DNA of 64,000 nt from Candidatus Dojkabacteria bacterium (GTDB lineage: Bacteria > Patescibacteriota > Dojkabacteria > SC72). This document shows, piece after piece, positions 17,986 through 59,829 of the stretch. Below the pieces are notes generated by a model. It had not been told where the DNA came from. It did no database searches and saw only the letters and a list, made by a program, of their open reading frames with translations. Positions within the stretch are counted from its first letter, which is position 1. Every line of letters begins with the position of its first letter. Where the stretch lies: contig JAVEZR010000001.1 of NCBI GenBank assembly GCA_034002865.1, positions 53,247 to 117,246 on the forward strand. The letters run 5' to 3'. The translations under genes and the position numbers were made by a program.

Positions 17986-19152
17986 ATGATATATTTTGAT
18001 ATGGATTTAAATAGTGCCCGGAGCAATGCTCCTGTAAATACAGCTAATGATATTCTCTCTGAGATTGTAGAGCTGCAAAACAAGCTTAGTACTTCTCCTG
18101 CACCAATAGAGCTTAAAGAAGATGTAATGAGAACCATTCAGAGATTGGAGAGAATGGCAAAATGGGGTAACTATAGCTCAGAGTTTGAGAGTGTAGATAA
18201 GTATGTAGACTGGGTAACAAGAATACCTTGGGGAGTTATCTCAGAGGATAACTTGAATATTGAGAATGCGAAAGAGCTAATGGACTCTACACACTACGGT
18301 ATGGATGTTGTAAAGAATTTGATACTAGATTACTTAGCAGTAATGCAGATACAGAAGTTAACAGGTAGGAACACTCCTCAGAGTAGTAACTCAGATATGG
18401 CTGGACTAAGGGGTTCATCTGCTAATGCTCCTGTACTTCTTTTCTTAGGCCTACAGGGTGTAGGTAAAACCTCTATTGCAAAATCCATAGCTCAGTCAAT
18501 GGGAAGGAAGTTCGCTAGAGTCTCACTTGGAGCTATTGGAGATGTAAGAACATTAAGAGGTTCACCAAGGCATGAGATTGATTCCGAGCCAGGACAGATA
18601 ATTAAGGCACTAGTTAGGACAGGTACAATGAATCCAGTAATTTTAATTGATGAGATAGAGAAAGCAAGTGGTAATGCTGGTTTACTTAATGATGTAATGG
18701 CAGCTCTACTTGAGATATTAGATTCAGAGCAGAACTCTACTTTTATAGACCACTATGTTGATCATCCTGTAGATTTATCTCAAGTATTTTTCATATGTAC
18801 AGCAAATAACCTAGGCGGGTTATCTGCAGCACTGTTAGATAGGGTGGAGATAATTAGGTTTACTAGTTACTCTGATGAAGAGAAAGGTGTAATAGCTAAG
18901 TCATATATACTACCTAAGGTTTTAAAAAATATGGGACTTACAGATCAACATATTCAAATTACACAGGAGGTATGGCCACTACTAATTAGGCCTGTTGGTT
19001 TTGATGCAGGTATAAGGCAGTTAGAAAGAAATATTGCTACATTAGCTAGAAGTGCTGCTAGACAGATAGTAGGGGGGCATCCTTTACCAATAGTTGTAAC
19101 ACCTGAGAATGTTAAAGAGTATGTACTTCCAGATCAAGGCCCTCTAAGTTAA
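17986..19152 (+). CDS. Lon-like AAA+ ATPase module with no N-terminal LAN domain and no C-terminal protease domain
   Basis: Matches the Lon coiled-coil linker and AAA+ core: YVDWVTRIPWG, HYGMDVVKNLILDYLAV, Walker A GLQGVGKTSIAKSIA, Walker B VILIDEIEK, sensor LLDRVEIIRF. The ORF stops right after the AAA+ small domain. Confidence 0.75.
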   Translation: MIYFDMDLNSARSNAPVNTANDILSEIVELQNKLSTSPAPIELKEDVMRTIQRLERMAKWGNYSSEFESVDKYVDWVTRIPWGVISEDNLNIENAKELMDSTHYGMDVVKNLILDYLAVMQIQKLTGRNTPQSSNSDMAGLRGSSANAPVLLFLGLQGVGKTSIAKSIAQSMGRKFARVSLGAIGDVRTLRGSPRHEIDSEPGQIIKALVRTGTMNPVILIDEIEKASGNAGLLNDVMAALLEILDSEQNSTFIDHYVDHPVDLSQVFFICTANNLGGLSAALLDRVEIIRFTSYSDEEKGVIAKSYILPKVLKNMGLTDQHIQITQEVWPLLIRPVGFDAGIRQLERNIATLARSAARQIVGGHPLPIVVTPENVKEYVLPDQGPLS

Positions 19153-19376
19153 TATCCCTTAAAAGGGTTTGTTAATTGTAAAGCCTTCATTACCCTTGAT
19201 AGATTCTCATCCTTTATTGCCCTGGAGATGTCAGTTTTTACTCTACTTTTTTCTTCATACTTCTCTAAAAATAGAAGATCATTATTAACCTTCTCTTGAG
19301 ATAGCTGTTTTATATCCACAGCTTCTGTTACAAGATACTTCTTTAATTCTTCGTTACTGTTTTGATTTGTCATCAT
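19149..19376 (-). CDS. Small hypothetical protein (75 aa) that is the last gene of the VirB4 operon
   Basis: Charged, probably helical ORF that overlaps the 3' end of the VirB4-like gene (19354-19376), consistent with operon coupling. No motif. Confidence 0.3.
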   Translation of the reverse strand: MMTNQNSNEELKKYLVTEAVDIKQLSQEKVNNDLLFLEKYEEKSRVKTDISRAIKDENLSRVMKALQLTNPFKGY

Positions 19377-21759
19377 TCTCTATTATACCTTGTGGAGTTA
19401 TATGAGTTCTCCCTTTATTTAATTCCTCTCTCTGTTTACGTACCTGCCCCGGTATTGTGTTTTCTTCTACCATATCTACAAAGGATTTCTGAGACTCAAA
19501 CTTTTTAGGATTAAGAATCTCTTCCTGTTCCCTTAGTCTCTTTTCTAACTCCTCCTGATATTTGTTTCTCTCAGATTGAATCTTTTGTATATCTTCCTGC
19601 CTTCTCTCGACTGCTCTTTCAATTAACTCACTCTGTTTTGTAGAATCTGCAGAGATATTCTTCATAGGCTGTTGAGCTGCCGGTGGGTCATATATCTGAG
19701 CTAACTCTTGTATAGATCTTGTATCAGTCATACCTTTCTGACTCTTTCTAGCCTCTATTTCTCTTGGGTCTGAGGTAATTAGTTCATGCTCTGATTGGCT
19801 AGAGAGAACCTGTATTCCAACATGGTTAGCTCCTGCAAAGAAGAGACCTTGTCCTCTGTCACAGTTTAGTAAGAAGTTTCTTTCTCCGTCAGAGAGATTA
19901 AATACCTGTTGTAATTTTTCTACAGCAGATGGACTCTGTTTCATTAATATCTGTATTGAAGAGTTTGAGATTATTGCCCTTCCCATATCATTGTTCATAA
20001 AGTCGGCGACATCTTGTGTAATAGTTGTTAATCCTAAGTAGTACTTTCTTGCTCTTTTAGCTAAAGAGTACATAAATTTTGCAGAATCTTCTCTTTGCAT
20101 CATATACCAAGCTTCATCAACAATTAACTGTCTCCTTCTTTGATCCTTACGTATCTTTGTCCATATGAAATCTAACATTAGATACATTGAGAGAGGCTTT
20201 AGTTCTTCTTGTAGATCTCTAACACTAAATACTGTAAATGGATTATTAATTTCAAAGTTACTAGCCTCATTAAATACTCCAGCCGCACTTCCCATTATAT
20301 ATTTCTCCATTCTTTTAGAGAGCTCGTGTGCTTCTGTTTCTGCCATTCCCTTCAACACCTTATACAGATCCTCTAGAAGTGGAGCAGGGCGTTTCTGTGT
20401 TGCAGGGTCAAATGTAATACCTTTTTCTCTGTACGTTAATATCAGTGCTCTATCTAATATTGAGGTTTCTACATTTGTAAGTCCTTCAAACATTACTTTA
20501 AAGAATCCTTGCAGTGCTAGTAGTTTCATTCTTAACTCGTCATCTCCTTCCTCTGTCACCCCTGAGAGTTCAAATGGATTCATCTTATGACCTTTGTCTT
20601 GTGAGAAAGAAATGTATGCTCCATTAACTGCTTTTGAGAGATCTTCATACTCTCGCTCTGGATCAATAATTATTATATGTGTACCAAGCATTAAGCTTCT
20701 TACGGCTTCTAATTTTACAAAGTAACTTTTACCTGCACCTGACTTAGCAAAGACAACGGCATTTGCATTCTCTAATTCAAATCTGTCAAATATTACTAAG
20801 CTCTTGTTATGCATATTAATCCCGTACATAATTCCATGGTCCATTGTTAACTCTGATGTTACAAATGGGAATGTTGTAGCAAGAGAGGTAGTATCCATAT
20901 TCCTAGTAATGTACAGTTTGTCCAATCCTAATGGCTGAGTGCTGATAAAGGCAGGCTCTTGTTGAAGTGTTGCAGGTTTTGCTATTACATTCATAGCAGC
21001 AAGCGTAGAGGTAACATTCCTAGAGTATTTCTCAAGTAAATCTTTTGAAGGTCCATATATTGTTACGTACATAGCAAAGTGGAAGAACTTCTCAGTACCC
21101 TCTGCTATGGAGTCTTGTAGCTGTTGAGCATCAGAGAGAGCTACCTTTAAAGATGGGTCTACAACTTTCCTATCTTCCATCTGGGAGTAAAGGGTAGCTT
21201 CCATCTCACCTATCTTTTTCTTAAGTTTCTCTAATATGATTTTAGAATCTACAGGGTAGTAAAAGGTACTTATTCTAAGTGAGTGCTCAAAGTTGATAAT
21301 GGGGGAGAGCCAATTAGGTCCTACAAATCTGGGATATCCACTAACAAAAAAGGTTCTAGAGTAGTAATCACCCATTTGTAATGTATTAAAATCTACCTCT
21401 ACATCTATTGGAGCAATGATATCTTGAGTACTTAAGCCTTCGAATTTACCAACAGGAGCTTCAGCTTTTATTTCAACCTTTGGAGGTTTTATACCTATGG
21501 TTGTTTTAAAGTTATCGATTATTTTTGCAAAAGGACTCCTTTTATCCTCTTCCTTAGTATCATTAAATCTATCTTTTTTATCTACTTGCTCTTTAGATGT
21601 TTTAATATTCTCTAAATCTTTTCTTAGATCACCTTGAAAAGAAGCATATTTGTTCTCGGTAAGCTTGTTTTTACGCTCATCGAGCATCTGCATAGTCTTC
21701 GATGTTAAGTTGTTTTTACTATCTTTGTTATTCATCCTCTCCTTTTGGTAATTCTTCAT
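19354..21759 (-). CDS. virB4: VirB4/TrbE/CagE-family type IV secretion ATPase with K/E-rich N- and C-terminal extensions
   Basis: N-domain motif YSRTFFVSGYPRFVGPNWLSPII. Walker A VVFAKSGAGKSYFVK. IIIDPEREYEDL (VirB4 D-P-x-G/E-Y). Walker B LIVDEAWYMM. GLTTITQDVADF. No TM helices. ~100 aa of K/E/D-rich N-terminus and ~150 aa of charged C-terminus lie outside the ATPase core. Confidence 0.85.
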   Translation of the reverse strand: MKNYQKERMNNKDSKNNLTSKTMQMLDERKNKLTENKYASFQGDLRKDLENIKTSKEQVDKKDRFNDTKEEDKRSPFAKIIDNFKTTIGIKPPKVEIKAEAPVGKFEGLSTQDIIAPIDVEVDFNTLQMGDYYSRTFFVSGYPRFVGPNWLSPIINFEHSLRISTFYYPVDSKIILEKLKKKIGEMEATLYSQMEDRKVVDPSLKVALSDAQQLQDSIAEGTEKFFHFAMYVTIYGPSKDLLEKYSRNVTSTLAAMNVIAKPATLQQEPAFISTQPLGLDKLYITRNMDTTSLATTFPFVTSELTMDHGIMYGINMHNKSLVIFDRFELENANAVVFAKSGAGKSYFVKLEAVRSLMLGTHIIIIDPEREYEDLSKAVNGAYISFSQDKGHKMNPFELSGVTEEGDDELRMKLLALQGFFKVMFEGLTNVETSILDRALILTYREKGITFDPATQKRPAPLLEDLYKVLKGMAETEAHELSKRMEKYIMGSAAGVFNEASNFEINNPFTVFSVRDLQEELKPLSMYLMLDFIWTKIRKDQRRRQLIVDEAWYMMQREDSAKFMYSLAKRARKYYLGLTTITQDVADFMNNDMGRAIISNSSIQILMKQSPSAVEKLQQVFNLSDGERNFLLNCDRGQGLFFAGANHVGIQVLSSQSEHELITSDPREIEARKSQKGMTDTRSIQELAQIYDPPAAQQPMKNISADSTKQSELIERAVERRQEDIQKIQSERNKYQEELEKRLREQEEILNPKKFESQKSFVDMVEENTIPGQVRKQREELNKGRTHITPQGIIENDDKSKQ

Positions 21760-22384
21760 CTGGGTTATATATTGTATAAAACTCTGTTATTAACTCTTTA
21801 TTTGTAAGTTGATGTCCAAAGAGTCCCATTCTTCCTAACTGCTTTAGTAGATGATCTCTTTTTGGATAGAGGAAGATTTTAGATTTTTCTAGTAGTTGAT
21901 CCTGTTTCATTGCTAAGCTTCTCTCTATTTCTTCTCTTGTTTGTTTCGATTTTAAAAGAGATGAACCGGGAATCTCACCTGCAGGATTAAAGGGAATTAC
22001 TATTAAGAATGTTTTATCTAATACATCATTTTGAACTATTAAGTTCTGTATAAACTCGGTATATATATTTAACTGTCTTTTTAAACCCTCAGACATGGCT
22101 TCATTCTCCTGCTCTTCAAGGTAATCCACATAGTTAGAGATATCTATTCTCCTTGTTCTAATTAATATTTGGATATGGAAATTAAGGGAGTTTAGTAGTC
22201 CTGCAAAAGCATATATCTTACTATCCTGCTCATACTCTGCTAGTAAGTCAAAGTTAATAGCGGAGGTTTGAAGTACAAGAGCTACAGTACCAGTTTTTGT
22301 AATAACTAAATCATCAACTATCTCTCTTACTTCGAGATGATCCTGTGTAGATGAAGTTGTTCTTGCTCTTGCATTTATATCCAT
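21728..22384 (-). CDS. Hypothetical soluble protein (218 aa), translationally coupled to the flanking membrane-protein and VirB4 genes
   Basis: The stop overlaps the VirB4 start by 32 nt, and the start overlaps the stop of the upstream gene (ATGA). No TM and no recognisable motif. Confidence 0.5.
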   Translation of the reverse strand: MDINARARTTSSTQDHLEVREIVDDLVITKTGTVALVLQTSAINFDLLAEYEQDSKIYAFAGLLNSLNFHIQILIRTRRIDISNYVDYLEEQENEAMSEGLKRQLNIYTEFIQNLIVQNDVLDKTFLIVIPFNPAGEIPGSSLLKSKQTREEIERSLAMKQDQLLEKSKIFLYPKRDHLLKQLGRMGLFGHQLTNKELITEFYTIYNPDEELPKGEDE

Positions 22385-23220
22385 TACTTCAGTGTTATCT
22401 TCAAAGGTAATTTACTCTGATTAGATGATACAACTATTCTTAACTTTGGTGCTCCTGAGATTGGGCCTTCAAACTCTACTGTATATATTCCTTCTGGATA
22501 TATTTTATTAGTTAAGAAGTATCCATTAGGGCCAGTCTTATTAGCATACAGGATCTTACCATTAGAATCCTTAAGAAAGGCATTTATACCAGAGAGAGGT
22601 TGACTGTCTTTAGTACATAGCCAGATATTAATATTACCAGGTAGTTGATCTACACTTTTTATTGGAAATTGGAAGTTAGAGATATTTTCCTCTGAAATAG
22701 TGAGATACTCCTCTGTAGGAGTAATTACCTCTTCTGTTTCTTGCACTACCTGTGGTGTAGTCATAACTTCCTGTGTACTATCTCCTGCTAAGATATCATC
22801 TCCTGGATTCTCTTCAAAGATGTCTACCCTCTGTTTTTGTGTAATATCTGAAGCTCCTATTACCTTCTTCTTGCTTTCATCTACAGCATTAACCTGAGGT
22901 TTAATCCTTTGCTCTTTCATAGTTTGGTTTAACCATACTCTCTGTGTAGGCTTATTTATTGCAGAGAAGAAATTTATAATGGCTTTATCTGCAGGTAAAT
23001 CATTTATTGGTACAAGTGCTAAGAAAGCCCCTATACCTGAGAGTATTGCAAAGAGAGGTATACCAACAATGCCAGGTATATCTCCTCCGATAGAGAAGTA
23101 GAGGAAGATAGAGCCTGTACCTATACCTAAGGCTAAATATGCGAACTCTTTTAATGTAAACCTTGTGAAGAGTTTAAACTCGATATCTAATACATTTTGT
23201 GGAATAGGATGTTGTCTCAT
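22384..23220 (-). CDS. PrgI/VirB3-like membrane hairpin protein fused to a C-terminal extracytoplasmic beta-sandwich domain (carboxypeptidase-regulatory-like)
   Basis: The N-terminus (IPQNVLDIEFKLFTRFTLKEFAYLALGIGTGSIFLYF, then a second TM) resembles PrgI/TcpE/VirB3-family proteins encoded next to VirB4. The C-terminus (KDSNGKILYANKTGPNGYFLTNKIYPEGIYTVEFEGP) looks like a CarboxypepD_reg/Ig-like fold. Confidence 0.45.
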   Translation of the reverse strand: MRQHPIPQNVLDIEFKLFTRFTLKEFAYLALGIGTGSIFLYFSIGGDIPGIVGIPLFAILSGIGAFLALVPINDLPADKAIINFFSAINKPTQRVWLNQTMKEQRIKPQVNAVDESKKKVIGASDITQKQRVDIFEENPGDDILAGDSTQEVMTTPQVVQETEEVITPTEEYLTISEENISNFQFPIKSVDQLPGNINIWLCTKDSQPLSGINAFLKDSNGKILYANKTGPNGYFLTNKIYPEGIYTVEFEGPISGAPKLRIVVSSNQSKLPLKITLK

Positions 23221-23279
23221 TATTCAGGAATAGTTTACCAGAATTATCAATAATAGTGGAGGGTAATACTTCTTAAAAG

Positions 23280-24107
23280 ATGTTGTACCTGCTATCATAT
23301 CCTGTAATGTACAGAAAAGAGCTAAAAGAAATAATAGAGGAGTTAGTACTGTTTAAATCTAATATGGGGCTAAAACTCTCTATTAAAAAGCTTCAATATA
23401 TATGGGGTAAGGGAATTATAAAGGGGCTAGATGAGAGTATATTAAATACTCTGGAAAGAGGAACAAAAGAAGAGAGTTCTAATATTACACAGAAGAAAAT
23501 AGAGATTGCAAATGAAAGAGTAAAATCTTTATTGGTATCTAACTGGGTTAGATTTGTAGGTATATCTGGTTCTGTAGCTGCAGGCTTTACTAAAGAGGAT
23601 GATGATATAGATTTATTTATCGTTGTTAGAGATGGTAGCGCATGGATATATAGGGGGATATTAACAGTAAGAAATATATTTAATCATATAGCTAGGACAA
23701 GTAGAGATGGGAATACTGTTAAGGATCTGTTCTGTATAAATTTCATAGTTGAAGAGAGAGGCTTAGAGCTTGAATCTGATATATTTAATTTCCATGAGCT
23801 TATGTATCTTATACCTCTTTACAATGAGAGATATCTTAATCATATTTACAGAAAGAATAGATGGTTACTTACTAAGTATTTCATCAACAAAGAATTAGTA
23901 GTAAGTAGGGAGAGAGAGCTTAAGAGAGTAAATATCTTCTTAAGAATTATTAATTGGCTTGCATATATAGCCCAAATCCTCTTTATGATACTTTCAGGTC
24001 ATAGGCCAGAGATAGATAGGTTACTTAGTAATTATAAAGAGGGTAGGATAGAGTTCTTTCCTAAGGAGTATAAAAGCGAGGTAATGAAAAGTGTGATTAA
24101 GAAATAG
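23280..24107 (+). CDS. Nucleotidyltransferase-fold protein (Pol-beta/LicD-like GS...DDDID motif)
   Basis: GISGSVAAGFTKEDDDIDLFIVV fits the minimal nucleotidyltransferase pattern hG[GS]x9-13DhDh. 275 aa, with a helical C-terminal region. Confidence 0.4.
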   Translation: MLYLLSYPVMYRKELKEIIEELVLFKSNMGLKLSIKKLQYIWGKGIIKGLDESILNTLERGTKEESSNITQKKIEIANERVKSLLVSNWVRFVGISGSVAAGFTKEDDDIDLFIVVRDGSAWIYRGILTVRNIFNHIARTSRDGNTVKDLFCINFIVEERGLELESDIFNFHELMYLIPLYNERYLNHIYRKNRWLLTKYFINKELVVSRERELKRVNIFLRIINWLAYIAQILFMILSGHRPEIDRLLSNYKEGRIEFFPKEYKSEVMKSVIKK

Positions 24108-24110
24108 AGA

Positions 24111-50109: not shown

Positions 50110-50142
50110 GTATTAATAACTAAAGTTTAAATATTTGAAAAT

Positions 50143-50463: not shown

Positions 50464-50504
50464 AAATCGTTGCTATTGCGTTTCTCTCTTTGTATGATGA
50501 ATAG

Positions 50505-52127
50505 ATGCATTTAACACCTTACCAAAAAAGACAGCTGAAGATTGTTGTTGCTTTAGTTATAGGCATACCATTAACAATATTTGCCGTATATCAAGGTATT
50601 CAGTATCTCTCCAAAGCAAGTGCAGATGTAACTCCTCAAGATGTTGTAATTACTAACCTAACAACTAACTCTCTTACAGTAACATGGTTTACGCAGAGTT
50701 CTGCAGATGGATATGTTGTTCCACTATTAAATGGAGTAGAGCAAAGTCCTGTTAGAGACAAAAGGGGGAGTGGCAAGAGAACATCCCACTATGTTGAATT
50801 AAGAAGTCTAGAGCCTAGTACTAAATATAGCTTTACGATAGTGTCAGGAGGTAGTAAGTATACGAATAGTAGTGGTATAAACTATGAGTTTACAACTGCA
50901 CCTGTTGGTACTGATACTCCAATTCCAAACCCTATACATGGTACTGTAACAGGGATTTCTAATGATGATGTTGTTGTGTATGTATTCCCTAAAAACAAAA
51001 GTACATATCCAGTATCTACAACAATCCCAAGCGGTGGTAACTGGATAGTAGATCTTTCTTCTTTGAGAAAGATATCTGACAAGAGTATGGTAAAGATTAC
51101 TGATGATACTGAGTTAGTATTAATGGCTAAAAATACTGCAAATAAAGGAGCAGTACTAGAGGGGTCATACTCATCTCTTTTTGATAGTAATGGGAAATTA
51201 AATAGAACACTCTCCTTAGCTATAGGAGAGCTTGGAGATCTCATTACACACTTTCCTGACGATTCGAAGTTAGGAACGAAAGCTGTAGTTACTACCAAAC
51301 CTACTCCAACTCCTACGCCGAAGCCTCCTACAACTCCTACTAAAGATCCTGATGAAGAAGATACCGATACAGTTGTAGATCGAGATTATCAAATAGTGCA
51401 TGATTTAAGATGGGTAGATATGGTTACTGGGCAGGCTACTAGTAACTTACAAAGTGGAGAGGGTACAGTACTGATTACAAACTTAACAGATGTAGGCTTT
51501 ACTGTTGTATGGAGATCTCCTCAGAAAGTAGATGGATATATAAAGTATGGAACAAGTAAGACATCTCTTACAGAAGAGGTTTGGGATGTTAGAGATGGTT
51601 TGTCCAATAGAGGTACATACTATGCTCACTCAGTAGAGAGTAAAAGGGTAGATCCCGATACTACATACTACTTTACAATATACTCTGGAGAGGATATCTA
51701 TAACAACTCGGGAAGTATGTACTCTGTTACAACTCTTCCTACTTTAAGTTCTCCTCCTCCCTTTGAAACTAGATCTGGTTCTCTTGGAGAAGTGTCTACT
51801 CCTGGTGATTGGATAGTAGTTGCTAAAATTGTAGATGACGATGAAGCAGGTACATTGGGTAGCTCTAAGTTAATGTCTACAATCCCAGATGATAATGGGT
51901 ATTGGATATTAACAGTAGGAGATACTAGAAGTGAGGATGGTAGTACATACTTCTCATTCTCTAATACAGATATACTTAATATATACTTCTTAGGAGCAAA
52001 GGAGAAGCTATTTGAATTCCCTATGTCTATCTCTGAGATTAGCTTAGATACCTCTTCTGTAGGTAGTGCTGTAGTAGAAAGTAGTGTTAAATTGCTTTCT
52101 GATTATGGAATAGTTAATATAAAGTGA
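50505..52127 (+). CDS. Secreted or anchored protein with two FN3/PAP-N-like domains in tandem-duplicated modules
   Basis: 540 aa with an N-terminal TM or signal. Module 1 is TNLTTNSLTVTWFTQSSADGYVV...TSHYVELRSLEPSTKYSFTIVSGGSKYTNSSG. Module 2 is TNLTDVGFTVVWRSPQKVDGYIKYG...YYAHSVESKRVDPDTTYYFTIYSGEDIYNNSG. A Thr/Pro-rich linker (KPTPTPTPKPPTTPTKDP) separates them. Confidence 0.5.
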   Translation: MHLTPYQKRQLKIVVALVIGIPLTIFAVYQGIQYLSKASADVTPQDVVITNLTTNSLTVTWFTQSSADGYVVPLLNGVEQSPVRDKRGSGKRTSHYVELRSLEPSTKYSFTIVSGGSKYTNSSGINYEFTTAPVGTDTPIPNPIHGTVTGISNDDVVVYVFPKNKSTYPVSTTIPSGGNWIVDLSSLRKISDKSMVKITDDTELVLMAKNTANKGAVLEGSYSSLFDSNGKLNRTLSLAIGELGDLITHFPDDSKLGTKAVVTTKPTPTPTPKPPTTPTKDPDEEDTDTVVDRDYQIVHDLRWVDMVTGQATSNLQSGEGTVLITNLTDVGFTVVWRSPQKVDGYIKYGTSKTSLTEEVWDVRDGLSNRGTYYAHSVESKRVDPDTTYYFTIYSGEDIYNNSGSMYSVTTLPTLSSPPPFETRSGSLGEVSTPGDWIVVAKIVDDDEAGTLGSSKLMSTIPDDNGYWILTVGDTRSEDGSTYFSFSNTDILNIYFLGAKEKLFEFPMSISEISLDTSSVGSAVVESSVKLLSDYGIVNIK

Positions 52128-52130
52128 GGT

Positions 52131-53504
52131 TTGTTAATTGTTTATAAATGCATTAGAATCATTTGCTTAATGGATATTAAAAGTACACTCTTAAAATTTA
52201 AACCCATATTCTTCTTACTACTAATGTCTTTTGTGACCTTTACTCTTGTATGGACAGTTAATCAGTTTAAAGATAGCTCTGAGTTTGTATCTGCCAAAGA
52301 GAACACTAAGGAGTTAAATTCTGTAGAAATAGTATCTCCTGTTTTAAATGAAAGTGATAGTGCAGTACCTGAGAAAGTGCAGGAGGATAACAAACCAATA
52401 GTGTTAAGTACAATAGCTTCTAGTGAATGCTCTGCATCGGTCATTAAGATAGACTCATACTCGGTTTGTACTAGAGGTGGCAGTGCAGAAATAGACTATA
52501 AAGATGGGTACAGATCGGGTACCTCTGTAAGTAAGAACTCAACCGTTGAACTAGTAGAGGTTAATATCCCTCTAGAGCTATTCTCAGGTTCTGGTGTAAA
52601 AGATTCGAATAGGAAAATTACAACAAAAACACCGATATATAAACCTGCAGGAGAACAGCTCGATCCTAAGGTCGCAAATGTAAAGCTACCTCCCGGTACT
52701 AATATAGTTGAGTATAAAAGCCCAGTAAAAGATAGACCTTTCTCTACACCATACACTACATCGATGGCAGATCAGGTATCAGAAGATGGTGAGGTGATTG
52801 TTGATAAGAAGATAATAAATAATTGTGAAGAGTGTAATAACCCTTCTAATGTGAATCCAGATAACTCAAATAAAAGCTCTGAATTTGTATATGAATCTCT
52901 GTATAAAGCACCCGGAGAAAAAGCTACCGCTAACACATCTAAAGCTATTGAGTCTTGTACTGAGGATGATCAATTTGTAGATTGGCCATCTCCAGCATCT
53001 AATAGAAAAGCATGTGCTACATCTCCTATAGCTGTTGCAGTAAAGCTTATACAGACATTCTCTGAAGCGATATGGAGCGAGTGTAATGGGATTTTGAAAT
53101 ACGATGCTAATGGTAATCCTATTCCTCCTAGCGATAATTGTATTCGTCCTGAAGATATTGTAATAAAGATGACATCGGCTTTTGGTTCGGACAGAGAGTG
53201 TCTTGATGGTGTGTGTACGAATGCATATATGAATACAAGAAATAAAGTAGCATTGATGCCTTCAGAGTCAGAGAAGTATTCAGATAAGGTATATTACACT
53301 ACAGATTGTAAGGTAATTATCGAAGGTAAGAGATATACTGTAAAGTGTGCATGGGATATGTCTCATCTATTTAAAGAAAGGAAGTTCTCGGAGTATGATG
53401 ATTTACCAGATATTGAGAAAACTCCTCCCAAAGAGGTTTATAAAGATTTTTTAACCAATGAAGCTACTAAGAGACAGTATGAGCCAGTAGTAAAAATATA
53501 TTAG
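52131..53504 (+). CDS. Cys-rich secreted or anchored hypothetical protein
   Basis: 457 aa. The probable start is the internal Met (MDIKSTLLKFKPIFFLLLMSF) with a TM anchor. More than 20 Cys in the extracytoplasmic part. No known motif. Confidence 0.45.
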   Translation: MLIVYKCIRIICLMDIKSTLLKFKPIFFLLLMSFVTFTLVWTVNQFKDSSEFVSAKENTKELNSVEIVSPVLNESDSAVPEKVQEDNKPIVLSTIASSECSASVIKIDSYSVCTRGGSAEIDYKDGYRSGTSVSKNSTVELVEVNIPLELFSGSGVKDSNRKITTKTPIYKPAGEQLDPKVANVKLPPGTNIVEYKSPVKDRPFSTPYTTSMADQVSEDGEVIVDKKIINNCEECNNPSNVNPDNSNKSSEFVYESLYKAPGEKATANTSKAIESCTEDDQFVDWPSPASNRKACATSPIAVAVKLIQTFSEAIWSECNGILKYDANGNPIPPSDNCIRPEDIVIKMTSAFGSDRECLDGVCTNAYMNTRNKVALMPSESEKYSDKVYYTTDCKVIIEGKRYTVKCAWDMSHLFKERKFSEYDDLPDIEKTPPKEVYKDFLTNEATKRQYEPVVKIY

Positions 53505-53526
53505 ATTAATTTATTAACAAACAACA

Positions 53527-55011
53527 ATGAGTATATCTCTTAAAGTATATGGTAGCGGTCTTAGGATAAAAAGATTCCTAGGCACTAAAACATTCCAGAG
53601 CTCTCTTATTGCTTTCTTGTCGGTATTGATGTTCTTTGGGACATTTAATATATATGCTCAAGAAGGTATTTCGCCTGAGTGGGAAGGTACAAAGAGGTTT
53701 CACAATATTATAAGTGGAACTGACGGAGAGGAAGATAATATGAACAGTATGCAAGGATTGGAAATTCTAAATTCCGGTTGGGCAATTTTCTCTATTATGG
53801 TACCAGAGGCTACTCAGAATGCAGATAAAGTACTGTCGGATTCAAAAATCCCTAATGACTTAAAAAGGGGAGTCCTTGGAATGGCTGAAGATGCTAGCTA
53901 TGCTGCGTATGCATCATACCCTTCAGTAGATGTGGGAAAACATTTAGCTCAACAGTGGGTACCTGGCTATCAAGAGAGCGTTACAAGCTTGTATGCACAG
54001 AGCTCTTCTGCAGGACATGAATCGGGATACTCTGAATTAATGGGAAGTGGAATAGTGAAGCTATGGAATAGGGTGTTAAATATTGCATATGTAGCATTTG
54101 TTGTAGTAATGATAGCTGCAGGCTTTATGATTATGTTTAGACATAAGCTTGGTGGTCAGACTATGGTAACCATAGGGAATGTATTACCAGGAGTTATTAC
54201 AGCCCTTATTATTGCTACATTCAGTTTCGCTATAGCAGGATTAATAATAGATTTCGGTGGGGTATTAACCTCTATTGTAGTGTTTATTCTAAAAGGGAGT
54301 TCGGATTTGAATATTCATAGTACATCTAACATATATACACTGATGATAGGGGCCTTTGGTAATGTACTCAATGATCTCGGGAAGCTGTCTCCTGTACATA
54401 CGGGAGTTGGAGTAATAGACAAAGTATTAGATCTCTCAGCTATAGTAATAGGTATAGTTGGAACCGTTGCAACAGTCGGTATTCCACTGTTAATTTTAGG
54501 ATTAATTACAGCCGGTGTTGTTTTTGTTGGGGCTGTGAAAGTTTTAATTGTCCTGTTCAAGGCATACTTTAATATCCTCCTAAATACAATTATTGGTCCT
54601 GTTCAGATTGCATTAAGTGCTTTGCCTGGAAATGGACACATGCTTCAAAATTGGTTTACAAGTATACTCAGAAATGTCTTAGTCTTTCCTTTGGTATTAG
54701 CAATAATAAATATACCAAATGCTATTGTTGCTGCTACGGATGGAGATTTTGATTTAAAACTCCCTGAGAAGCTAACATATGATCAGAATCAAGGTATTTT
54801 TGAAACTTTAGTTCCAAATCTTGGACTGAATATAGGAGGAGGTTTTGTAATGGTTCTCTTTAGAATCTTTATCCTTTATTTCGCAGCTCAAGCACCTAAA
54901 TTCCTTGAAGCGTGGTTACCACCTAATACTCCAAAGCCAGTTGGAGAGGCTATGGTGTCGGCGAAAGGTAGTCTATCTAAAGTTCCTTTGATTGGAACAC
55001 TATTTAAGTAG
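53527..55011 (+). CDS. Polytopic membrane protein (~7-8 TM) with a signal peptide and ~150-aa extracytoplasmic N-domain; VirB6/TrbL-like architecture
   Basis: 494 aa. Signal-like N-terminus (LIAFLSVLMFFGTFNIYAQE). Multiple Gly/Ile/Val-rich TM helices (e.g. VLDLSAIVIGIVGTVATVGIPLLILGLITAGVVFVGAVKVLIVLF). Resemblance to VirB6/ConG-type proteins rests on architecture only. Confidence 0.4.
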   Translation: MSISLKVYGSGLRIKRFLGTKTFQSSLIAFLSVLMFFGTFNIYAQEGISPEWEGTKRFHNIISGTDGEEDNMNSMQGLEILNSGWAIFSIMVPEATQNADKVLSDSKIPNDLKRGVLGMAEDASYAAYASYPSVDVGKHLAQQWVPGYQESVTSLYAQSSSAGHESGYSELMGSGIVKLWNRVLNIAYVAFVVVMIAAGFMIMFRHKLGGQTMVTIGNVLPGVITALIIATFSFAIAGLIIDFGGVLTSIVVFILKGSSDLNIHSTSNIYTLMIGAFGNVLNDLGKLSPVHTGVGVIDKVLDLSAIVIGIVGTVATVGIPLLILGLITAGVVFVGAVKVLIVLFKAYFNILLNTIIGPVQIALSALPGNGHMLQNWFTSILRNVLVFPLVLAIINIPNAIVAATDGDFDLKLPEKLTYDQNQGIFETLVPNLGLNIGGGFVMVLFRIFILYFAAQAPKFLEAWLPPNTPKPVGEAMVSAKGSLSKVPLIGTLFK

Positions 55012-55022
55012 TCCAATTCTTT

Positions 55023-57632
55023 ATGGCTAAGAAGTCTAAAACAGAAAACTTTGATGCTTTAGGTAGTGTATTTGATTTTCTCTTTACTGAGGCTAAGAAA
55101 CCACCAGATAAAAGGAAACCAATTAAACCTACAGGAGTAGCTGGAGATAGCGCACTTACTGACGCTTTGTTTTCATCTTTAGAGATGCCAGGAGCATTTG
55201 TAACAGATACCATTGTAGACGAATTTAACGGGGCAATAGATATTGAGTTGGGAAGGGTGAAATATGGAGAATACGGTAATGTAAAATTCACGACGACATC
55301 TTTAATTGATCTTTTGAAAGACCCTGAGAAAGCTTTCCAAAAAGCTGTTACTACTCAGAAGGCAATCCGAAAATCTCAGAGAGCGATGTTTCTTGGTGCT
55401 GCAATGGAAGATTTGGTTACCTCTGCATGGGCGCATAAGTACGGTAACCTCGAGGCAAGAGCTGCTATCTATGGTGCGTCCGTAGCTAATAGAGCAGAAA
55501 GTTACAAAATTGAAAGAGCTCTTGGGCAGTTTGGTGCATCACACAAGGAAGATGGAGTATCAAAGTTACAAGGTACTGGAGCTCCTGGGCGTTTCTCTCC
55601 AAAAGATTTAAACTTCATGGCCGATAGGTCAACTGATTTACTAGGCAGTAAGACGTTCGGTAGCAATTGGAATACATTGAGTGACTCGGATAAAGCGGAG
55701 TTTGCGAGCCAAGTAAGTGGAAAGAAAACTTCTGAGATACAGACATACTTAGCAAAGAAATATGGAACTACTATTCCAAGTGCAGCTACTAATTTTGGAG
55801 CAGCCGTTGGAAGTACAGAGAACGTAGATATCTTTAACGGTGCACTGTATAAGAAATTAGAAGGTGCTAATTTGCAAGATAAAATTGCGGATCCCTCAAC
55901 ATCTTCTGAAGAAAGAGAGATATACAAAAAAACATACTACTTATTACAAAGGGACAAAGTAACTCTTAATACTGCAATAAAGGATATTAAGGATAGATTA
56001 AAGAGAGCTACGTCTTCAGTAGATAAGGCAGTATTAGAGAAGGAGTTAAAAGAGACTAGAAATGTTCTAAGGATTGTACAAGGGCATGGTGTTTTCGGAA
56101 GAATTGGTCAAATTGAAGGATATTATAACTCTCTAAACAATATTTATGGAGGAGTATTAGGTTCTAATTTCGCTGCTAGTGTGTTAAATGGAAAACTTTA
56201 TGATAAAAACCAAAATTCCTTATTCTTACCTGTAAGTGAGGCTAAGGTAGGTGGCGTGGATATCTTAGTTGCAAAGGATAGTCCTTACAAGTTACTAGGT
56301 AAGTATAACCAAGTCATGACCGATATATACTATCTTACACCTAGATCATTGGCTCGTAATTTCTATAATGGCGAAGGTTTTGCATACCTTTTACATAAGA
56401 AATTGATAAATATAACTAAGCTTCCTGCTTTTTCAAAACTTTCTAGCTTAGGAATAGATAAAAAAACATTATTAGAAGGATTTAATAGTAAAGACATAGA
56501 TACTTTTATTAATGATTTATTGAAAAAATCTTCAGGTATATTGAATGCTAAAGAGTTAGAAAAACTTGAAAAGTTTCTACAGTCATCAAAAACTCTTAAA
56601 AAATTAGCTCATAGATTTAGTTTTGTCTCTAGAGTTCAAGAATCTTTGAATAAGGCACTTGGAGAGCAACTAAAGAAATTCCGTACTGAGATTAAAGATT
56701 GGATATTGAAAAATCCTAAGGTTCTCGCTTGGTTTACAAAAGTAGGTGCCGATAAGTTACTAAAACAGTGGGCTCTTAAAGGAGGAATCGATGTTTTAAT
56801 AAAATCTCTTCTAAGTGCAATAGCCAGTGCATTAGGACTAAGTATGGGCCCTGTAGTTAGTGCTATTGTAGGAGGATTAACGATGATTGTATCAGGTGTT
56901 GTAATGAAAGTACTAGGCGTTGGATTGAATATGCTGAAGTGGGCTGCAATAGGTGCATTCGCTATCCTACTTATTATCCCTACATTAGGTTACGGTTCTT
57001 TAATTAGTTATAATCAAAAGAATTTATCATATAAGTTGGAAACCCCAGGATCAATAATTCAATGCACAGTATATCAAGAAACAGAGCTTGAAGAGGGAGA
57101 TACCCCTTGGGGAGACACAATTATACCTCCTCCATCTGGAGAAAGCTGTATATTTGGAGCAGGAAGCTTTGGATGTTCACAAGGATACAATGATGTAGAT
57201 GGCTGGACCCATCAGAGAACCTCACATCTAATGCCTGTAGACTTAACATCCGTAGGATATATATATGCTCCTCAATTTTGTAGTACAGGGAATTGTAGTA
57301 TTACAAGAATTGCAATGATTAACTGTAGTGATGGATCTAATGCTGGAGGTATAGTTGAATTAACTGCTACAAGTGGAGGTACTACTTACTTCTTTAAACT
57401 ACTACATGTAAAACCTTTGGCAGGATTAGGTGAGAAGCTCTCAGGAGGGCAGGCTGTTGCAGTAGTTCAAGAATCTCCAGAGGTAGAGAAAGGATGGTGT
57501 TGGACAGGTAAGCATTTACACTTAGAAACAAGACAGAATGGTGCAGTAGTAGATCCTTTGGAATTACTACAAAGTTTTAGCTGTGGAGTACCTGATGAGT
57601 CCAGTTGTAGTAGGCCAAAACCTAAGTTATAA
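55023..57632 (+). CDS. Membrane protein with a ~570-aa cytoplasmic N-domain, 2-3 TM helices and a C-terminal extracytoplasmic Cys-rich M23 (LytM-type) peptidase domain
   Basis: 869 aa with no signal peptide. TM block LSAIASALGLSMGPVVSAIVGGLTMIVSGVVMKVLGVGLNMLKWAAIGAFAILLIIPTL. The C-terminal domain has M23 motifs HxxxD (SHLMPVD) and HxH (GKHLHLETRQNGAVVDP). Confidence 0.6.
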   Translation: MAKKSKTENFDALGSVFDFLFTEAKKPPDKRKPIKPTGVAGDSALTDALFSSLEMPGAFVTDTIVDEFNGAIDIELGRVKYGEYGNVKFTTTSLIDLLKDPEKAFQKAVTTQKAIRKSQRAMFLGAAMEDLVTSAWAHKYGNLEARAAIYGASVANRAESYKIERALGQFGASHKEDGVSKLQGTGAPGRFSPKDLNFMADRSTDLLGSKTFGSNWNTLSDSDKAEFASQVSGKKTSEIQTYLAKKYGTTIPSAATNFGAAVGSTENVDIFNGALYKKLEGANLQDKIADPSTSSEEREIYKKTYYLLQRDKVTLNTAIKDIKDRLKRATSSVDKAVLEKELKETRNVLRIVQGHGVFGRIGQIEGYYNSLNNIYGGVLGSNFAASVLNGKLYDKNQNSLFLPVSEAKVGGVDILVAKDSPYKLLGKYNQVMTDIYYLTPRSLARNFYNGEGFAYLLHKKLINITKLPAFSKLSSLGIDKKTLLEGFNSKDIDTFINDLLKKSSGILNAKELEKLEKFLQSSKTLKKLAHRFSFVSRVQESLNKALGEQLKKFRTEIKDWILKNPKVLAWFTKVGADKLLKQWALKGGIDVLIKSLLSAIASALGLSMGPVVSAIVGGLTMIVSGVVMKVLGVGLNMLKWAAIGAFAILLIIPTLGYGSLISYNQKNLSYKLETPGSIIQCTVYQETELEEGDTPWGDTIIPPPSGESCIFGAGSFGCSQGYNDVDGWTHQRTSHLMPVDLTSVGYIYAPQFCSTGNCSITRIAMINCSDGSNAGGIVELTATSGGTTYFFKLLHVKPLAGLGEKLSGGQAVAVVQESPEVEKGWCWTGKHLHLETRQNGAVVDPLELLQSFSCGVPDESSCSRPKPKL

Positions 57633-57644
57633 AACTAAGATATA

Positions 57645-58616
57645 ATGAAAATACAGGGAAGTAGAAAGAATGCCTTCTATATTCTAATAGCCTTTATAAT
57701 TATCATCTCAGTAGTACTTCTAATAGTGCTAAACTCCCTTTATGCTAAACAGTATCCAGAGGAACCAATTAAGATGAAGAACCTTGGTAAAAGTACTCAA
57801 ACAATTGATATATCTTCCTTAAGTAAAAAGATTGAACAGGAAGATATCCCTGTATATTTTGTACACCCAAGATTACATATCTCAAATGTAGAGGAGATGA
57901 TTGATAAAATGGGTTTGTCATTAAAAAGAGAAGATATAGTTAAAGATAGCTATATCCAATGGAGTGATGGGGAAAATAGCTTCACATATGACTCTGTACA
58001 AGACACAGTATCGTTTCAATTAACAAGAAGGATATCATTAGAAAGAGGGGTAGAAGCTTTTAAGAATGTATTTCAAAAGTACCTAGGTATCCAACACGAT
58101 TATGTTTTAATTAAAGAGAGAAAGAACAACGATGGAGGAGTAACTTACTACGCTTCTCGTACCTTAGATGGTATTCCTGTTCAGTTTGGTGCTAACTATG
58201 AATACTCTGAGATTTTAAAATTTAACAAGGAGGGAGTTTTAGAATCAGGACAGTTACTATTAGCAGAGTTTGAGAAGTATGATCTATATGTTCCAACCAT
58301 TACCAATGATGAGTTAAAAGCGTATATAAATGCAAAAGATTATCCTAAAGAGCACTATATAGATAGCTCTGTATTAACAGAGACATTAGATCTTAACTAT
58401 CTTGATGAAGCCTGGGGAGAAATAGAGGGCACATTGGAGGAGTGTAAGGCTCAAGATTTTGAAAATATCTTTCTTTACAAAAATAGTAATCAAGGATACC
58501 TTTTACCCGTAGTAAAGATATCTGCTAATTGTAATGTTACTAGTAAAGCCACTGTATATACCGTACCCGTAACTTTCTATGTTAATGGAGTTAGCCCCGA
58601 TTATGTGACTTTGTAA
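57645..58616 (+). CDS. Hypothetical membrane-anchored extracytoplasmic protein
   Basis: 323 aa with an N-terminal TM (FYILIAFIIIISVVLLIVL). No motif. Confidence 0.4.
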   Translation: MKIQGSRKNAFYILIAFIIIISVVLLIVLNSLYAKQYPEEPIKMKNLGKSTQTIDISSLSKKIEQEDIPVYFVHPRLHISNVEEMIDKMGLSLKREDIVKDSYIQWSDGENSFTYDSVQDTVSFQLTRRISLERGVEAFKNVFQKYLGIQHDYVLIKERKNNDGGVTYYASRTLDGIPVQFGANYEYSEILKFNKEGVLESGQLLLAEFEKYDLYVPTITNDELKAYINAKDYPKEHYIDSSVLTETLDLNYLDEAWGEIEGTLEECKAQDFENIFLYKNSNQGYLLPVVKISANCNVTSKATVYTVPVTFYVNGVSPDYVTL

Positions 58617-58623
58617 GCATCTT

Positions 58624-59829
58624 TTGTGGTACAATATTGAAATGAAAATATTCAGATTATTTACAATTCTCTTTGTTACACAACTCTTCTTCTTACTTCT
58701 TGGTAGTACTACTTACGCTATGGATATTACTACCAGAGAAGATCTTAAATTAGATAGTACTCTCTCAGAAGAGGAGTCACTCTTTACACAACCTCAGAAG
58801 ATATATATTACTCAGGTAAAAAGTTTAAACAAAGAGCTTAAGAATGATAGTCGTGCATGGGTAAGGTCAATATATTACTACAGTATTACAAGGTTAAAAT
58901 TAAATGATATACCTTACAACTATCTTGTAGATAGTAGTGGAAATGTATTTGAAGGAACAAGGGGTGGAGCTGGAGCAAATCCAGGCCTACAGGGAGGAGA
59001 TAACGTTGTACTTATAGGGATACTAGATAGTGATTCAACATTAACACCTAGAGCTCAAAGCTCCCTTGTAGAGTTAGTTGAAACTCTTTCATATAAGTAT
59101 GGGATAAAGGAAGGCTCTTGGGATTTTGTAGATTTACAGATTGCTATGAATGAGGGAGAGAGATCATATCTTACATATACGTCATCTAGTAGCTCTGTAT
59201 CGCAAACTATAACCCAAACAATGTCTTCTGTACGTTGGTCAGCAGAGGAGCATTTAGAGTACAAGGCAAGTATAGTAGATGTTGAATATCCAAAAGAGAT
59301 AGAGGTAGGTAAGCAGTTACCAGTGAAGGTTACAATTAAAAATGAGAATGATTTTACTTGGTTTAGTGATACTAAGTATATCTATATCTCTACTGCAGAT
59401 TCCTCTGAGAGTCCATATGCTATTAACTCTGCATGGGAGAGTTTTAGTAGGCCTACATATATTAAAGAGAAATATGTAAAACCTGGAGATAGTGTAGAGG
59501 TACAGTTTAATATGCTAGGTAAGAGCAAACCTGGGGAGTATAAAGAGGAGTTTATTTTTGTTAAGGATAGTGCTTCCCAATTTAAAGATTCAAACTTTGA
59601 AGTAACTTTTAATATCATTGCTGGAGAGTATAAGCTTGTAGAAGTAGTATCTCCACAGTATGGATTTGTAAATATTCGTGAATGTAGATGGTATAGCTGT
59701 GCAAAGATAGAGGTAGCAAATGATGGAGACGTCTTTATTATGAACAAGAAAGAGGAGGGATGGTATGAAATTTACTACAACGAAGGGAATTTAGGTTGGG
59801 TATCCCAAACCTATATGAAAGAGCTATAG
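58624..59829 (+). CDS. Secreted PGRP/amidase_2-like peptidoglycan-binding protein with a C-terminal SH3b-like domain; the zinc ligands appear to be missing
   Basis: Signal peptide. PGRP-like core (IPYNYLVDSSGNVFEGTRGGAGANPGLQGGDNVVLIGIL vs PGRP DIGYNFLIGGDGxVYEGRGW...GAHA...NxxSIGI). The expected His and Cys ligands are not evident. The C-terminus (EGWYEIYYNEGNLGWVSQTYM) is SH3b-like. Confidence 0.5.
   Translation: MWYNIEMKIFRLFTILFVTQLFFLLLGSTTYAMDITTREDLKLDSTLSEEESLFTQPQKIYITQVKSLNKELKNDSRAWVRSIYYYSITRLKLNDIPYNYLVDSSGNVFEGTRGGAGANPGLQGGDNVVLIGILDSDSTLTPRAQSSLVELVETLSYKYGIKEGSWDFVDLQIAMNEGERSYLTYTSSSSSVSQTITQTMSSVRWSAEEHLEYKASIVDVEYPKEIEVGKQLPVKVTIKNENDFTWFSDTKYIYISTADSSESPYAINSAWESFSRPTYIKEKYVKPGDSVEVQFNMLGKSKPGEYKEEFIFVKDSASQFKDSNFEVTFNIIAGEYKLVEVVSPQYGFVNIRECRWYSCAKIEVANDGDVFIMNKKEEGWYEIYYNEGNLGWVSQTYMKEL

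Follow-up and report, generated by a model that had tools for sequence, protein, structure and literature searches.

Can the parts of one type IV secretion system (T4SS) be encoded at two chromosomal loci that lie far apart among housekeeping genes? The question was raised by a 64-kb stretch of DNA from contig JAVEZR010000001.1 (the whole stretch analyzed, hereafter the window), which is chromosomal DNA of Candidatus Dojkabacteria (WS6), a lineage of the Patescibacteria or Candidate Phyla Radiation. The window has a G+C content of about 35% and a dense housekeeping gene content, including groEL, murJ, folD, glyA, thyX, dcd, lepA, recF, holA, alaS, dnaJ, nusA, infB, pnp, rsmF, rsmE, and uvrD. 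An initial annotation had placed genes for a VirB3-like protein and a VirB4 ATPase at one locus, and genes for a polytopic 494-aa protein and an 869-aa protein of the M23 type at a second locus 27 kb away, and had proposed that both belong to one T4SS-like apparatus. All of these genes were found at the positions given for them. Locus 1 occupies positions 19149-23220 on the minus strand and locus 2 positions 50143-59829 on the plus strand, and the gap from 23220 to 50143 measures 26.9 kb. The two loci probably encode a single T4SS, with locus 1 supplying the motor and locus 2 the membrane and cell-wall parts; we infer that their products would assemble together.

The gap is filled by the housekeeping genes recF, lepA, holA, lytR, mltG/yceG, ruvX, alaS, dnaJ, nusA, infB, pnp, rsmF, and rsmE. 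Genes overlap or abut in locus 1, which was read as one operon, and the seven genes of locus 2 are separated by only 3-41 nt, so that two operons are indicated. A promoter scan found fewer promoter-like sites than in shuffled sequence, and a terminator scan found nothing useful.

A VirB4 ATPase module at locus 1

Locus 1 consists of genes for a PrgI/VirB3-like protein, a TrsD-like protein, VirB4, and a conserved 75-aa open reading frame (ORF). The VirB4 ATPase (19354-21759, minus strand; 801 aa) has Lys/Glu-rich tails at both its N- and C-terminus and matched the Pfam families PF19044 (E-value 1.3e-29), PF12846 (AAA_10), PF01935 (DUF87), and PF11130. A Walker A motif (SGAGKS) and a Walker B motif (IVDEAW) are readable in the translation, and the P-loop is intact. 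It shares 96% identity with a "Candidatus Dojkabacteria" protein and 72% with WS6 proteins titled "VirB4 component-like". Among the best 120 of 7885 scored matches, identity was at least 72% and every named protein came from Dojkabacteria/WS6.

The PrgI/VirB3-like membrane protein (22384-23220, minus strand; 278 aa) matched PF12666 with an E-value of 3.8e-5 and 24.6 bits, just under the 27-bit cut-off, and its orthologues in Dojkabacteria contigs carry this domain. The PrgI domain covers residues 5-87, with two to three hydrophobic segments within residues 26-69. A hidden Markov model (HMM) of this protein and its relatives identified the gene just upstream of TrsD-VirB4 in 21 loci of Microgenomatia, with E-values from 1e-85 to 1e-123. 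Past the PrgI domain, the protein also has an extension of about 190 aa (residues ~90-278) that is strand-rich at its end; PrgI-like proteins of the Microgenomatia loci span 263 to ~530 aa, and such extensions are common and variable among them.

The gene between PrgI and VirB4 (21728-22384, minus strand) shares 1 nt at its start with the stop of the PrgI gene. Its 218-aa product had no Pfam match of its own, and the relatives of this product match TraC models. The product shares 37-46% identity with Microgenomatia proteins; 6 of 14 aligned family members matched PF11130 (TraC_F_IV; best E-value 1.4e-6), and orthologues carry PF26593 (TraC-like). In the loci mapped, this gene always lies between PrgI and VirB4. 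Judged from these sequence matches, the 218-aa protein is a TrsD-like component, predicted to be related to the N-terminal domain of VirB4/TraC. TrsD has been described as a remote homologue of the VirB4 N-terminus and as the commonest VirB4 companion in Patescibacteria, in a VirB3-TrsD-VirB4 arrangement (PMC12102498). At the other end of the block, the 75-aa ORF (19149-19376, minus strand) overlaps the 3' end of virB4 by 23 nt, and a gene of 67-78 aa occupies the same spot in three other Dojkabacteria contigs. Its ends are conserved, with MM(T/S)..N.N at the N-terminus and AL..NPF(K/R)G at the C-terminus; it belongs to no known family and is possibly an extra subunit.

Could this block act without locus 2? 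It might be a stripped-down ATPase module with another job, such as the uptake of DNA or nucleotides together with type IV pili or competence proteins, in which case the T4SS likeness of locus 2 would reflect shared ancestry only. Here, virB4 has no neighboring gene for a channel, pilin, or hydrolase, and reviews hold that the T4SS of these bacteria may serve import, both of which speak for such a module. However, PrgI/VirB3 and TrsD are T4SS-specific and strictly kept with VirB4, no way is known in which VirB4 could act in the absence of a membrane channel, and the sole VirB6-like candidate found sits in locus 2. A separate ATPase module was accordingly judged to be quite unlikely, and a VirB4 that works with the channel candidate of locus 2 was preferred.

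The PrgI-like gene and recF are separated by an opposite-strand gene (23280-24107, plus strand) for a 275-aa protein with a nucleotidyltransferase domain. In a relative (L003/L004), this gene is missing from that spot and recF directly precedes PrgI, and another locus (L169) has a 247-aa gene there on the opposite strand.

A predicted VirB6-like channel protein at locus 2

The channel candidate is a 494-aa polytopic membrane protein (53527-55011, plus strand), which is predicted to be a channel or stalk-base subunit. One N-terminal hydrophobic segment is followed by about 130 residues predicted to lie outside and then by at least six transmembrane helices, with hydropathy peaks or predicted helices at residues 177-206, 210-231, 233-256, 319-364, 370-404, and 436-454. 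Identical copies of this protein and of the 869-aa protein are already on record as hypothetical proteins of a Dojkabacteria metagenome-assembled genome. The window protein had no Pfam match. Among its relatives, TrbL/VirB6 (PF04610) was the sole Pfam family to recur, always below the cut-off: it was matched by 2 of 28 orthologues (best E-value 0.0017) and by one of ten distant relatives (E-value 0.0049, with 17.1 bits against a cut-off of 25.9). Because sequence profiles found no VirB6, the assignment rests on fold and gene context.

A structure model was obtained with AlphaFold2 from 28 sequences, at a moderate predicted local distance difference test (pLDDT) score of 66.9. In the model, the N-terminal anchor leads into a helical region that is predicted to lie outside the membrane, and long membrane helices form a bundle. 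When 350,542 PDB chains were searched with Foldseek, the top five matches were all to TrwI/VirB6 of plasmid R388 (E-values 0.014-0.057, probability 0.94-0.99, TM-scores 0.36-0.43 on the target), and unrelated proteins followed at a probability of 0.1. A second fold-search program also ranked a T4SS channel protein at the top. Over both programs, the best matches were DotA of the Legionella Dot/Icm system and TrwI/VirB6 (structures 7o3v, 8rt9, and 9ngy), with 210-227 aligned residues. TrwI/VirB6 is likewise a polytopic membrane protein and sits in the T4SS stalk. In contrast, identity to the 494-aa protein is 8-14% with no sequence signal, TrwI and DotA belong to diderm systems with outer-membrane complexes, and DotA has 857 aa. 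The closest solved folds of the 494-aa protein appear to be T4SS inner-membrane channel or stalk proteins, as a remote match to a model of moderate quality.

The family is large: 3431 representatives were found at an E-value of at most 0.001 among 1.84 billion cluster representatives (clusters at 50% identity), and it therefore reaches well beyond Dojkabacteria.

Relatives of the 494-aa protein in T4SS clusters of Microgenomatia

Gene context provided evidence that is independent of the structure model. Through distant members of the 494-aa family, 80 loci were fetched from species genomes of the GTDB, mostly from Microgenomatia (Woesebacteria, Pacebacteria, Curtissbacteria, Gottesmanbacteria, Shapirobacteria, and Beckwithbacteria), and their ORFs were called and searched with HMMs seeded from the window proteins. 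A PrgI-like gene was found downstream of the 494-aa relative in 21 loci, on the same strand (divergent in one), and was followed by a TrsD-like gene and virB4 where the flank reached that far. With at least 9 kb of downstream sequence available in 47 loci, the PrgI(-TrsD-VirB4) block lay 2.1-8.5 kb downstream on the same strand in 16, and we estimate the proximity expected by chance at about 1% in a genome of about 1 Mb. Upstream sequence extended for at least 3 kb in 67 loci, of which 60 had an array of small two-helix genes (median 7) on that side, and all of the array genes sampled (32/32) matched PF18895 (T4SS_pilin).

The order in Microgenomatia is as follows: the pilins, a large Cys-rich secreted protein, the VirB6-like protein, one gene on the opposite strand, PrgI, TrsD, VirB4, a membrane protein of 744-885 aa, and a small anchored protein. 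The same pattern was recovered in a second scan, of metagenome contigs, at L109, L139, L146, L164, and L168. The 494-aa family is a regular member of Patescibacteria T4SS clusters. VirB6 homologues have been reported to be scarce in Microgenomatia, with extreme divergence proposed as the cause (PMC12102498), and the 494-aa family is a good candidate for the VirB6 component that is missing from those survey results.

These neighborhoods also bear on whether the 494-aa protein could be an unrelated polytopic transporter, with its fold matches being noise from helical bundles and the two loci unconnected. The faint TrbL/VirB6 signal and the moderate model would allow this reading. Yet two different fold-search programs rank T4SS channel proteins at the top over the alignment lengths given above, and the pilin-array and VirB3-TrsD-VirB4 context does not depend on the model at all. 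An unrelated transporter was considered highly improbable, and a VirB6-like role, as the initial annotation had suggested, is upheld by both the fold matches (DotA and TrwI/VirB6) and the T4SS clusters around the relatives.

Two further features of these loci were observed. The submitter titles of many of the genomes (L007-L083), such as "uncultured Pseudomonadales", "Gammaproteobacteria", "Clostridia", and "Bathyarchaeia", conflict with their gene content. The opposite-strand gene between the VirB6-like gene and PrgI encodes 630-760 aa (L040:7873-10107, L070:11367-13268, L076:11267-13495, and L048:2239-4515, all on the minus strand); it had no Pfam match in the one copy scanned (L070), and some copies have a single C-terminal hydrophobic segment.

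A membrane-anchored M23-like protein beside the predicted channel gene

The gene after that of the VirB6-like protein (55023-57632, plus strand) encodes the 869-aa protein, p869, a candidate T4SS wall hydrolase. It has an N-terminal domain of about 590 aa that is probably cytoplasmic, a hydrophobic block at residues 588-661, and a Cys-rich C-terminal M23 domain. The match to PF01551 (Peptidase_M23) had an E-value of 0.0029 and 18.2 bits, below the cut-off of 28.7; several orthologues carry PF01551, and one (P0418) carries a CHAP domain instead. In the PDB, a profile of 33 family sequences had no matches other than M23 enzymes, among them a lytic endopeptidase, ShyA, LytM, and SpoIIQ (best E-value 2.2e-4). 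Residues H730, D740, and H795 and the HxH pair H831/H833 were each retained in 27-29 of the 33 relatives, with a non-canonical spacing between the first His and Asp that is longer than the usual HxxxD. Eight Cys were retained in 29-33 of the 33, and this near invariance fits an extracytoplasmic enzyme.

The p869 gene of Dojkabacteria is invariably the next gene after the one for the VirB6-like protein. Microgenomatia have, immediately downstream of virB4, a gene for a protein of 744-885 aa with a long N-terminal region, hydrophobic segments at about residues 440-620, and a C-terminal hydrolase, which was of the M23 type in L040 (E-value 2.4e-14) and of the CHAP type in L083 (1e-7). By architecture and position, the two proteins may be equivalents; orthology is not claimed. 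A swap between M23 and CHAP as the C-terminal hydrolase domain was seen both within the p869 family of Dojkabacteria and within Microgenomatia (L040:14190-16847 and L083:16947-19511).

A divergent lineage represented by metagenome contigs (L089-L093, L102, and L106) has a three-gene unit only, in housekeeping surroundings. Of its three products, one is an anchored protein (235 aa, 6-7 Cys) and one is VirB6-like (about 600 aa); the third, of 623-726 aa, is homologous to the N-terminal and transmembrane parts of p869 and has no hydrolase domain. The p869 family HMM matched three of these last proteins collinearly, with E-values from 4e-11 to 4e-5. The lack of a hydrolase domain in this unit indicates that the pairing of the VirB6-like protein with p869 is older than the M23 domain.

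A conserved split layout in Dojkabacteria

In every Dojkabacteria context read, locus 2 was flanked by rsmE/rsmF and uvrD, and locus 1 by recF and a Lon-like AAA gene. This synteny holds for both loci down to p869 orthologues at 26-31% identity, and about 45 metagenome loci have the same arrangement. In a relative, both loci were found on one 647-kb contig, with the same relative orientation and a separation of about 30 kb. The conservation of the split across these contexts indicates that it is old and stable in the Dojkabacteria class. Counted from virB4 in the window, the VirB6-like gene is the 31st gene and the hydrolase gene the 32nd, and both are consequently outside the neighborhood of ±20 genes around virB4 that was examined in a 2025 survey (PMC12102498).

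Contiguous arrangements are known from two other groups. In the cultured species Southlakia epibionticum ML1 (Saccharimonadia), where the T4SS is essential (PMC10633639), the order is pilins, VirB6-like, NTF2-like, 0011, PrgI, 0009, VirB4, peptidase, and lysozyme. This cluster (SEML1_0006-0019) resembles the window in being chromosomal, in having recF as a neighbor, and in containing no relaxase or coupling protein. It includes PrgI (SEML1_0010), VirB4 (0008), an unannotated protein between them (0009), and a VirB6-like polytopic protein (0013), and the genes beside virB4 encode a long protein ending in a peptidase domain (0007) and, next to it, a second wall hydrolase (0006). The peptidase domain of SEML1_0007 covers residues 951-1105 and has M15B and M23 structural neighbors, and SEML1_0006 is of the lysozyme/cysteine-peptidase type (Wang et al. 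2023 Table S2, PMC10633639); both are essential for epibiotic growth (PMC12102498). The S. epibionticum cluster differs in that all parts are contiguous, six VirB2-like pilins and an NTF2-like (VirB8-like) protein are present, and the VirB6-like protein has 1088 aa. Its hydrolases are of the DD-peptidase and lysozyme/cysteine-peptidase types, whereas the window has M23 and PGRP/SH3 types. Essentiality was shown for the S. epibionticum system.

Similarly, the Microgenomatia clusters (L023-L084) share with the window the 494-aa family, the PrgI-TrsD-VirB4 block (HMM E-values down to 1e-120), and a long membrane protein ending in M23 or CHAP. They differ in that the ATPase block adjoins the other genes there and is 27 kb off here, and in that a pilin array is present there and none was seen here. 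Four other products of locus 2 (an fn3 protein, p457, p323, and p401) are not detectably related to proteins of those clusters.

In the window, the order at locus 2 is the Cys-rich protein, the VirB6-like protein, the hydrolase, a small anchored protein, and a second wall enzyme, with PrgI-TrsD-VirB4 27 kb away. Set against the other two orders, locus 2 looks like a contiguous cluster minus the ATPase block, as if this had been excised between the VirB6-like and hydrolase genes. In the ancestor, the cluster probably ran without interruption from the VirB6-like gene to PrgI-TrsD-VirB4 and then the hydrolase. PrgI-TrsD-VirB4 would then have been separated in the Dojkabacteria lineage, leaving the VirB6-like gene to abut the hydrolase gene. 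Rickettsia, whose dispersed T4SS genes have been cited as an exception (PMC12102498), offers a precedent for distributing a single T4SS over several sites of the chromosome. The Rickettsia system is different in being of the diderm MPF-T type, with duplicated components and an unrelated lineage and composition.

Evidence for and against a single apparatus

The proposal that one T4SS-like apparatus is split over the two loci, made in the initial annotation, drew support from three independent sources: the fold of the 494-aa protein, the neighborhood of its relatives in another class, and the equivalent hydrolases. The last of these also lend weight to the membrane-anchored wall hydrolase proposed for the distant locus, since M23/CHAP equivalents lie beside virB4 in Microgenomatia and a similar protein occurs in S. 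epibionticum.

Several results weigh against a single apparatus. At the level of the channel, profiles of 28 and 70 sequences of the 494-aa family found no match to solved VirB6 among PDB sequences, the Pfam TrbL model never reached its cut-off in the family, the pLDDT was moderate, and Foldseek gave E-values of 0.014-0.057 with TM-scores of 0.39-0.43. For the hydrolase, an HMM of the p869 family found no match to its N-terminal domain in the Microgenomatia loci, and an hhalign comparison of the family with five post-virB4 proteins from that class aligned only 34 transmembrane columns. The HMMs of p540 (the fn3 protein), p457, p323, and p401 detected no relatives in the Microgenomatia clusters, and a profile search of the PDB with p323 gave no match, whether to solved VirB8-like proteins or to others. 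An HMM built from 287 Microgenomatia pilin genes found nothing better than an E-value of 0.34 among the window ORFs, so that no VirB2-like pilin was seen in the window. As to the link between the loci, about two thirds of the Microgenomatia loci had no virB4 within a distance of 9-10 kb from the VirB6-like gene, and the co-occurrence of the two loci inside Dojkabacteria is uninformative as the whole region is syntenic.

Under a different explanation, locus 2 would be a self-contained envelope operon for wall remodeling, division, or host attack that works without VirB4, and VirB3-TrsD-VirB4 would have other partners. It is favored by the finding that virB4 never lies within 8-10 kb of locus 2 in any Dojkabacteria context, by the related lineage that has the three-gene unit only (a small Cys protein, a VirB6-like protein, and the p869 N-domain without hydrolase), and by most locus 2 proteins being without relatives in the Microgenomatia T4SS clusters. 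On the other hand, known VirB6-family proteins work with VirB4, and VirB4 homologues are detectable in all known T4SSs. Relatives of the 494-aa protein lie in pilin and VirB3-TrsD-VirB4 clusters far more often than expected by chance, and VirB4 is encoded both here and in the genomes of relatives. A self-contained locus 2 was therefore deemed unlikely, and a single apparatus encoded by both loci remained the favored explanation.

The system is probably not a conjugation machine, as no relaxase and no mobile-element context were found in the window. Pfam scans of the larger window ORFs, including every one above 141 aa and leaving out short overlapping ORFs, detected no relaxase or coupling-protein (T4CP) domain. 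These results agree with the view that this is not a canonical conjugation system. The accompanying statement that the apparatus has neither a coupling ATPase nor a relaxase holds only for the scanned ORFs of the 64-kb window. Most Patescibacteria T4SS clusters lack a relaxase (PMC12102498), and VirB2-like pilin genes are common, not universal, in T4SSs of the Patescibacteria clade (PMC12102498; PMC10633639). The pilin HMM likewise found none in Dojkabacteria-type loci, save for one overlap with the VirB6-like ORF itself in L128.

Accessory genes of locus 2 and other window features

Besides the VirB6-like and hydrolase genes, locus 2 contains five genes, all on the plus strand. The first (50143-50463) encodes p106, a 106-aa protein with one N-terminal transmembrane helix (hydrophobic residues 7-25) and a long helical tail, and is kept at the same position in all Dojkabacteria contexts examined. 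This protein was considered as a pilin and rejected, having a single hydrophobic segment and no pilin-HMM match. The second (50505-52127) encodes p540, a 540-aa membrane-anchored surface protein (hydrophobic residues 11-29) with two fn3-type domains, matching PF00041 (fn3) and PF16656, and a Pro/Thr-rich linker. It is conserved within the operon, where a second fn3 protein of about 1000 aa often precedes it, and is a candidate adhesin or extracellular part.

Directly upstream of the VirB6-like gene (52131-53504), p457 is a 457-aa membrane-anchored extracytoplasmic protein with 14 Cys, for which no match was found in Pfam or PDB sequences; its orthologues have 11-16 Cys. Its position is equivalent to that of the large Cys-rich protein upstream of the VirB6-like gene in Microgenomatia, with no detectable homology between them, and an HMM of the Microgenomatia protein had no match in the window. 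That secreted protein lies between the pilin array and the VirB6-like gene (L040:3185-6328, L070:7196-9808, L076:6894-9500, L061:7540-9609, and others) and has 541-1047 aa with 16-33 Cys in six mapped clusters and up to 40 Cys elsewhere; the one scanned had no Pfam match. Its position is that of virB5 before virB6 in Agrobacterium, and it might be a pilus-tip or adhesin component.

Downstream of the hydrolase gene, p323 (57645-58616; 323 aa) has an N-terminal anchor (hydrophobic residues 11-29) and an extracytoplasmic alpha/beta region and is conserved in the operon. It has the right size and N-terminal anchor for a VirB8-like role, for which it is a candidate; a single-sequence AlphaFold2 model had a pLDDT of 40 and was unusable. 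The last gene of the conserved operon, before uvrD, encodes p401 (58624-59829; 401 aa), which is secreted or anchored. Weak PF01510 and PF08239 matches indicate a domain similar to PGRP/Amidase_2 and, at the C-terminus, an SH3b domain. When the PDB was searched with its family profile, matches were obtained to peptidoglycan-recognition proteins (8e-4) and, for an autolytic lysozyme, to its SH3 end (1e-3), which makes p401 a candidate second peptidoglycan-directed component.

Between the loci, the window also encodes Ig-like or fn3-like surface proteins (He_PIG, Pur_ac_phosph_N, DUF11, and Big_7) and a sortase, at 29253-31771, 37468-39324, and 40706-41506. A 132-aa protein (29653-30051) had a weak match to Pur_ac_phosph_N, which is of the fn3 type, and its counterpart in L003/L004 matched the second fn3 domain of p540. 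Additionally, two housekeeping genes have unusual lengths. The alanyl-tRNA synthetase gene (35675-37423, minus strand) is short, encoding 582 aa with catalytic and SAD domains only, and the ThyX gene (14422-16017, plus strand) is long, encoding 531 aa of which the Thy1 domain covers residues 41-221 only.

Relation to known systems and a possible mechanism

A T4SS that is chromosomal, has no relaxase, and descends from the monoderm MPF-FATA class has been described as widespread across the ultra-small Patescibacteria, whose VirB4 clade was placed inside that class (PMC12102498). That 2025 survey covered Dojkabacteria genomes, which were scored as VirB4-positive (PMC12102498).

With the Gram-positive T4SSs (pCF10 PrgH/I/J/K/L, pCW3 Tcp, and ICEBs1 Con), the window shares a VirB3-like protein, VirB4, a VirB6-like protein, and a membrane-anchored wall hydrolase, and no outer-membrane complex is present. 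It differs in being without a relaxase, coupling protein, or mobile-element context, and in its housekeeping synteny, its two loci, and the presence of a TrsD-like protein. Moreover, p869 has no SLT, CHAP, or NlpC domain. PrgK also contains a domain of the LytM/M23 type.

The general T4SS architecture is established for R388 and for the Gram-positive Prg/Pcf systems, and a mechanism can be proposed here by analogy. VirB4 oligomers would be held at the membrane by the PrgI-like protein; the TrsD-like protein would be an accessory, and the small conserved ORF a further part of this energizing module. The VirB6-like 494-aa protein would form the membrane channel or the base of the stalk. Held beside the channel by its transmembrane segment, p869 would cut peptidoglycan cross-links with its M23 domain outside the membrane, and p401 would bind or cleave peptidoglycan. 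Together, p869 and p401 could open the cell wall, either the cell's own or that of a host, and the fn3 and Cys-rich proteins would be the exposed parts. The substrate is likely to be protein or another macromolecule exchanged with a host cell, rather than DNA in conjugation. Views in the literature on the role of the Patescibacteria T4SS lie between the export of effectors and the import of host macromolecules.

Implications for Patescibacteria

The chromosomal T4SS of Patescibacteria was known already. New are the assignment of a distant operon to this system, a divergent VirB6-like family that standard profiles missed, and a class-specific split without nearby pilins. In a broader reading, which we hold tentatively and with somewhat less than even confidence, the 494-aa proteins may be a large unrecognized VirB6-like family that supplies the missing channel of Microgenomatia and Dojkabacteria. 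The Dojkabacteria machine would then be split and pilus-less, with fn3 and Cys-rich proteins and M23, PGRP, and SH3 proteins replacing the pilins, possibly to breach the host wall.

Few machines have been shown to be essential to the host-dependent lifestyle of Patescibacteria, and the T4SS is one of them. The channel and hydrolase genes of the window would escape surveys limited to 20 genes around virB4 and to existing VirB6 profiles, and such distance and divergence may partly explain the scarcity of VirB6 in Microgenomatia. A profile of the 494-aa family, together with recognition of the split layout, would give fuller parts lists for these systems and point to the wall-degrading and surface proteins that are likeliest to touch the host.

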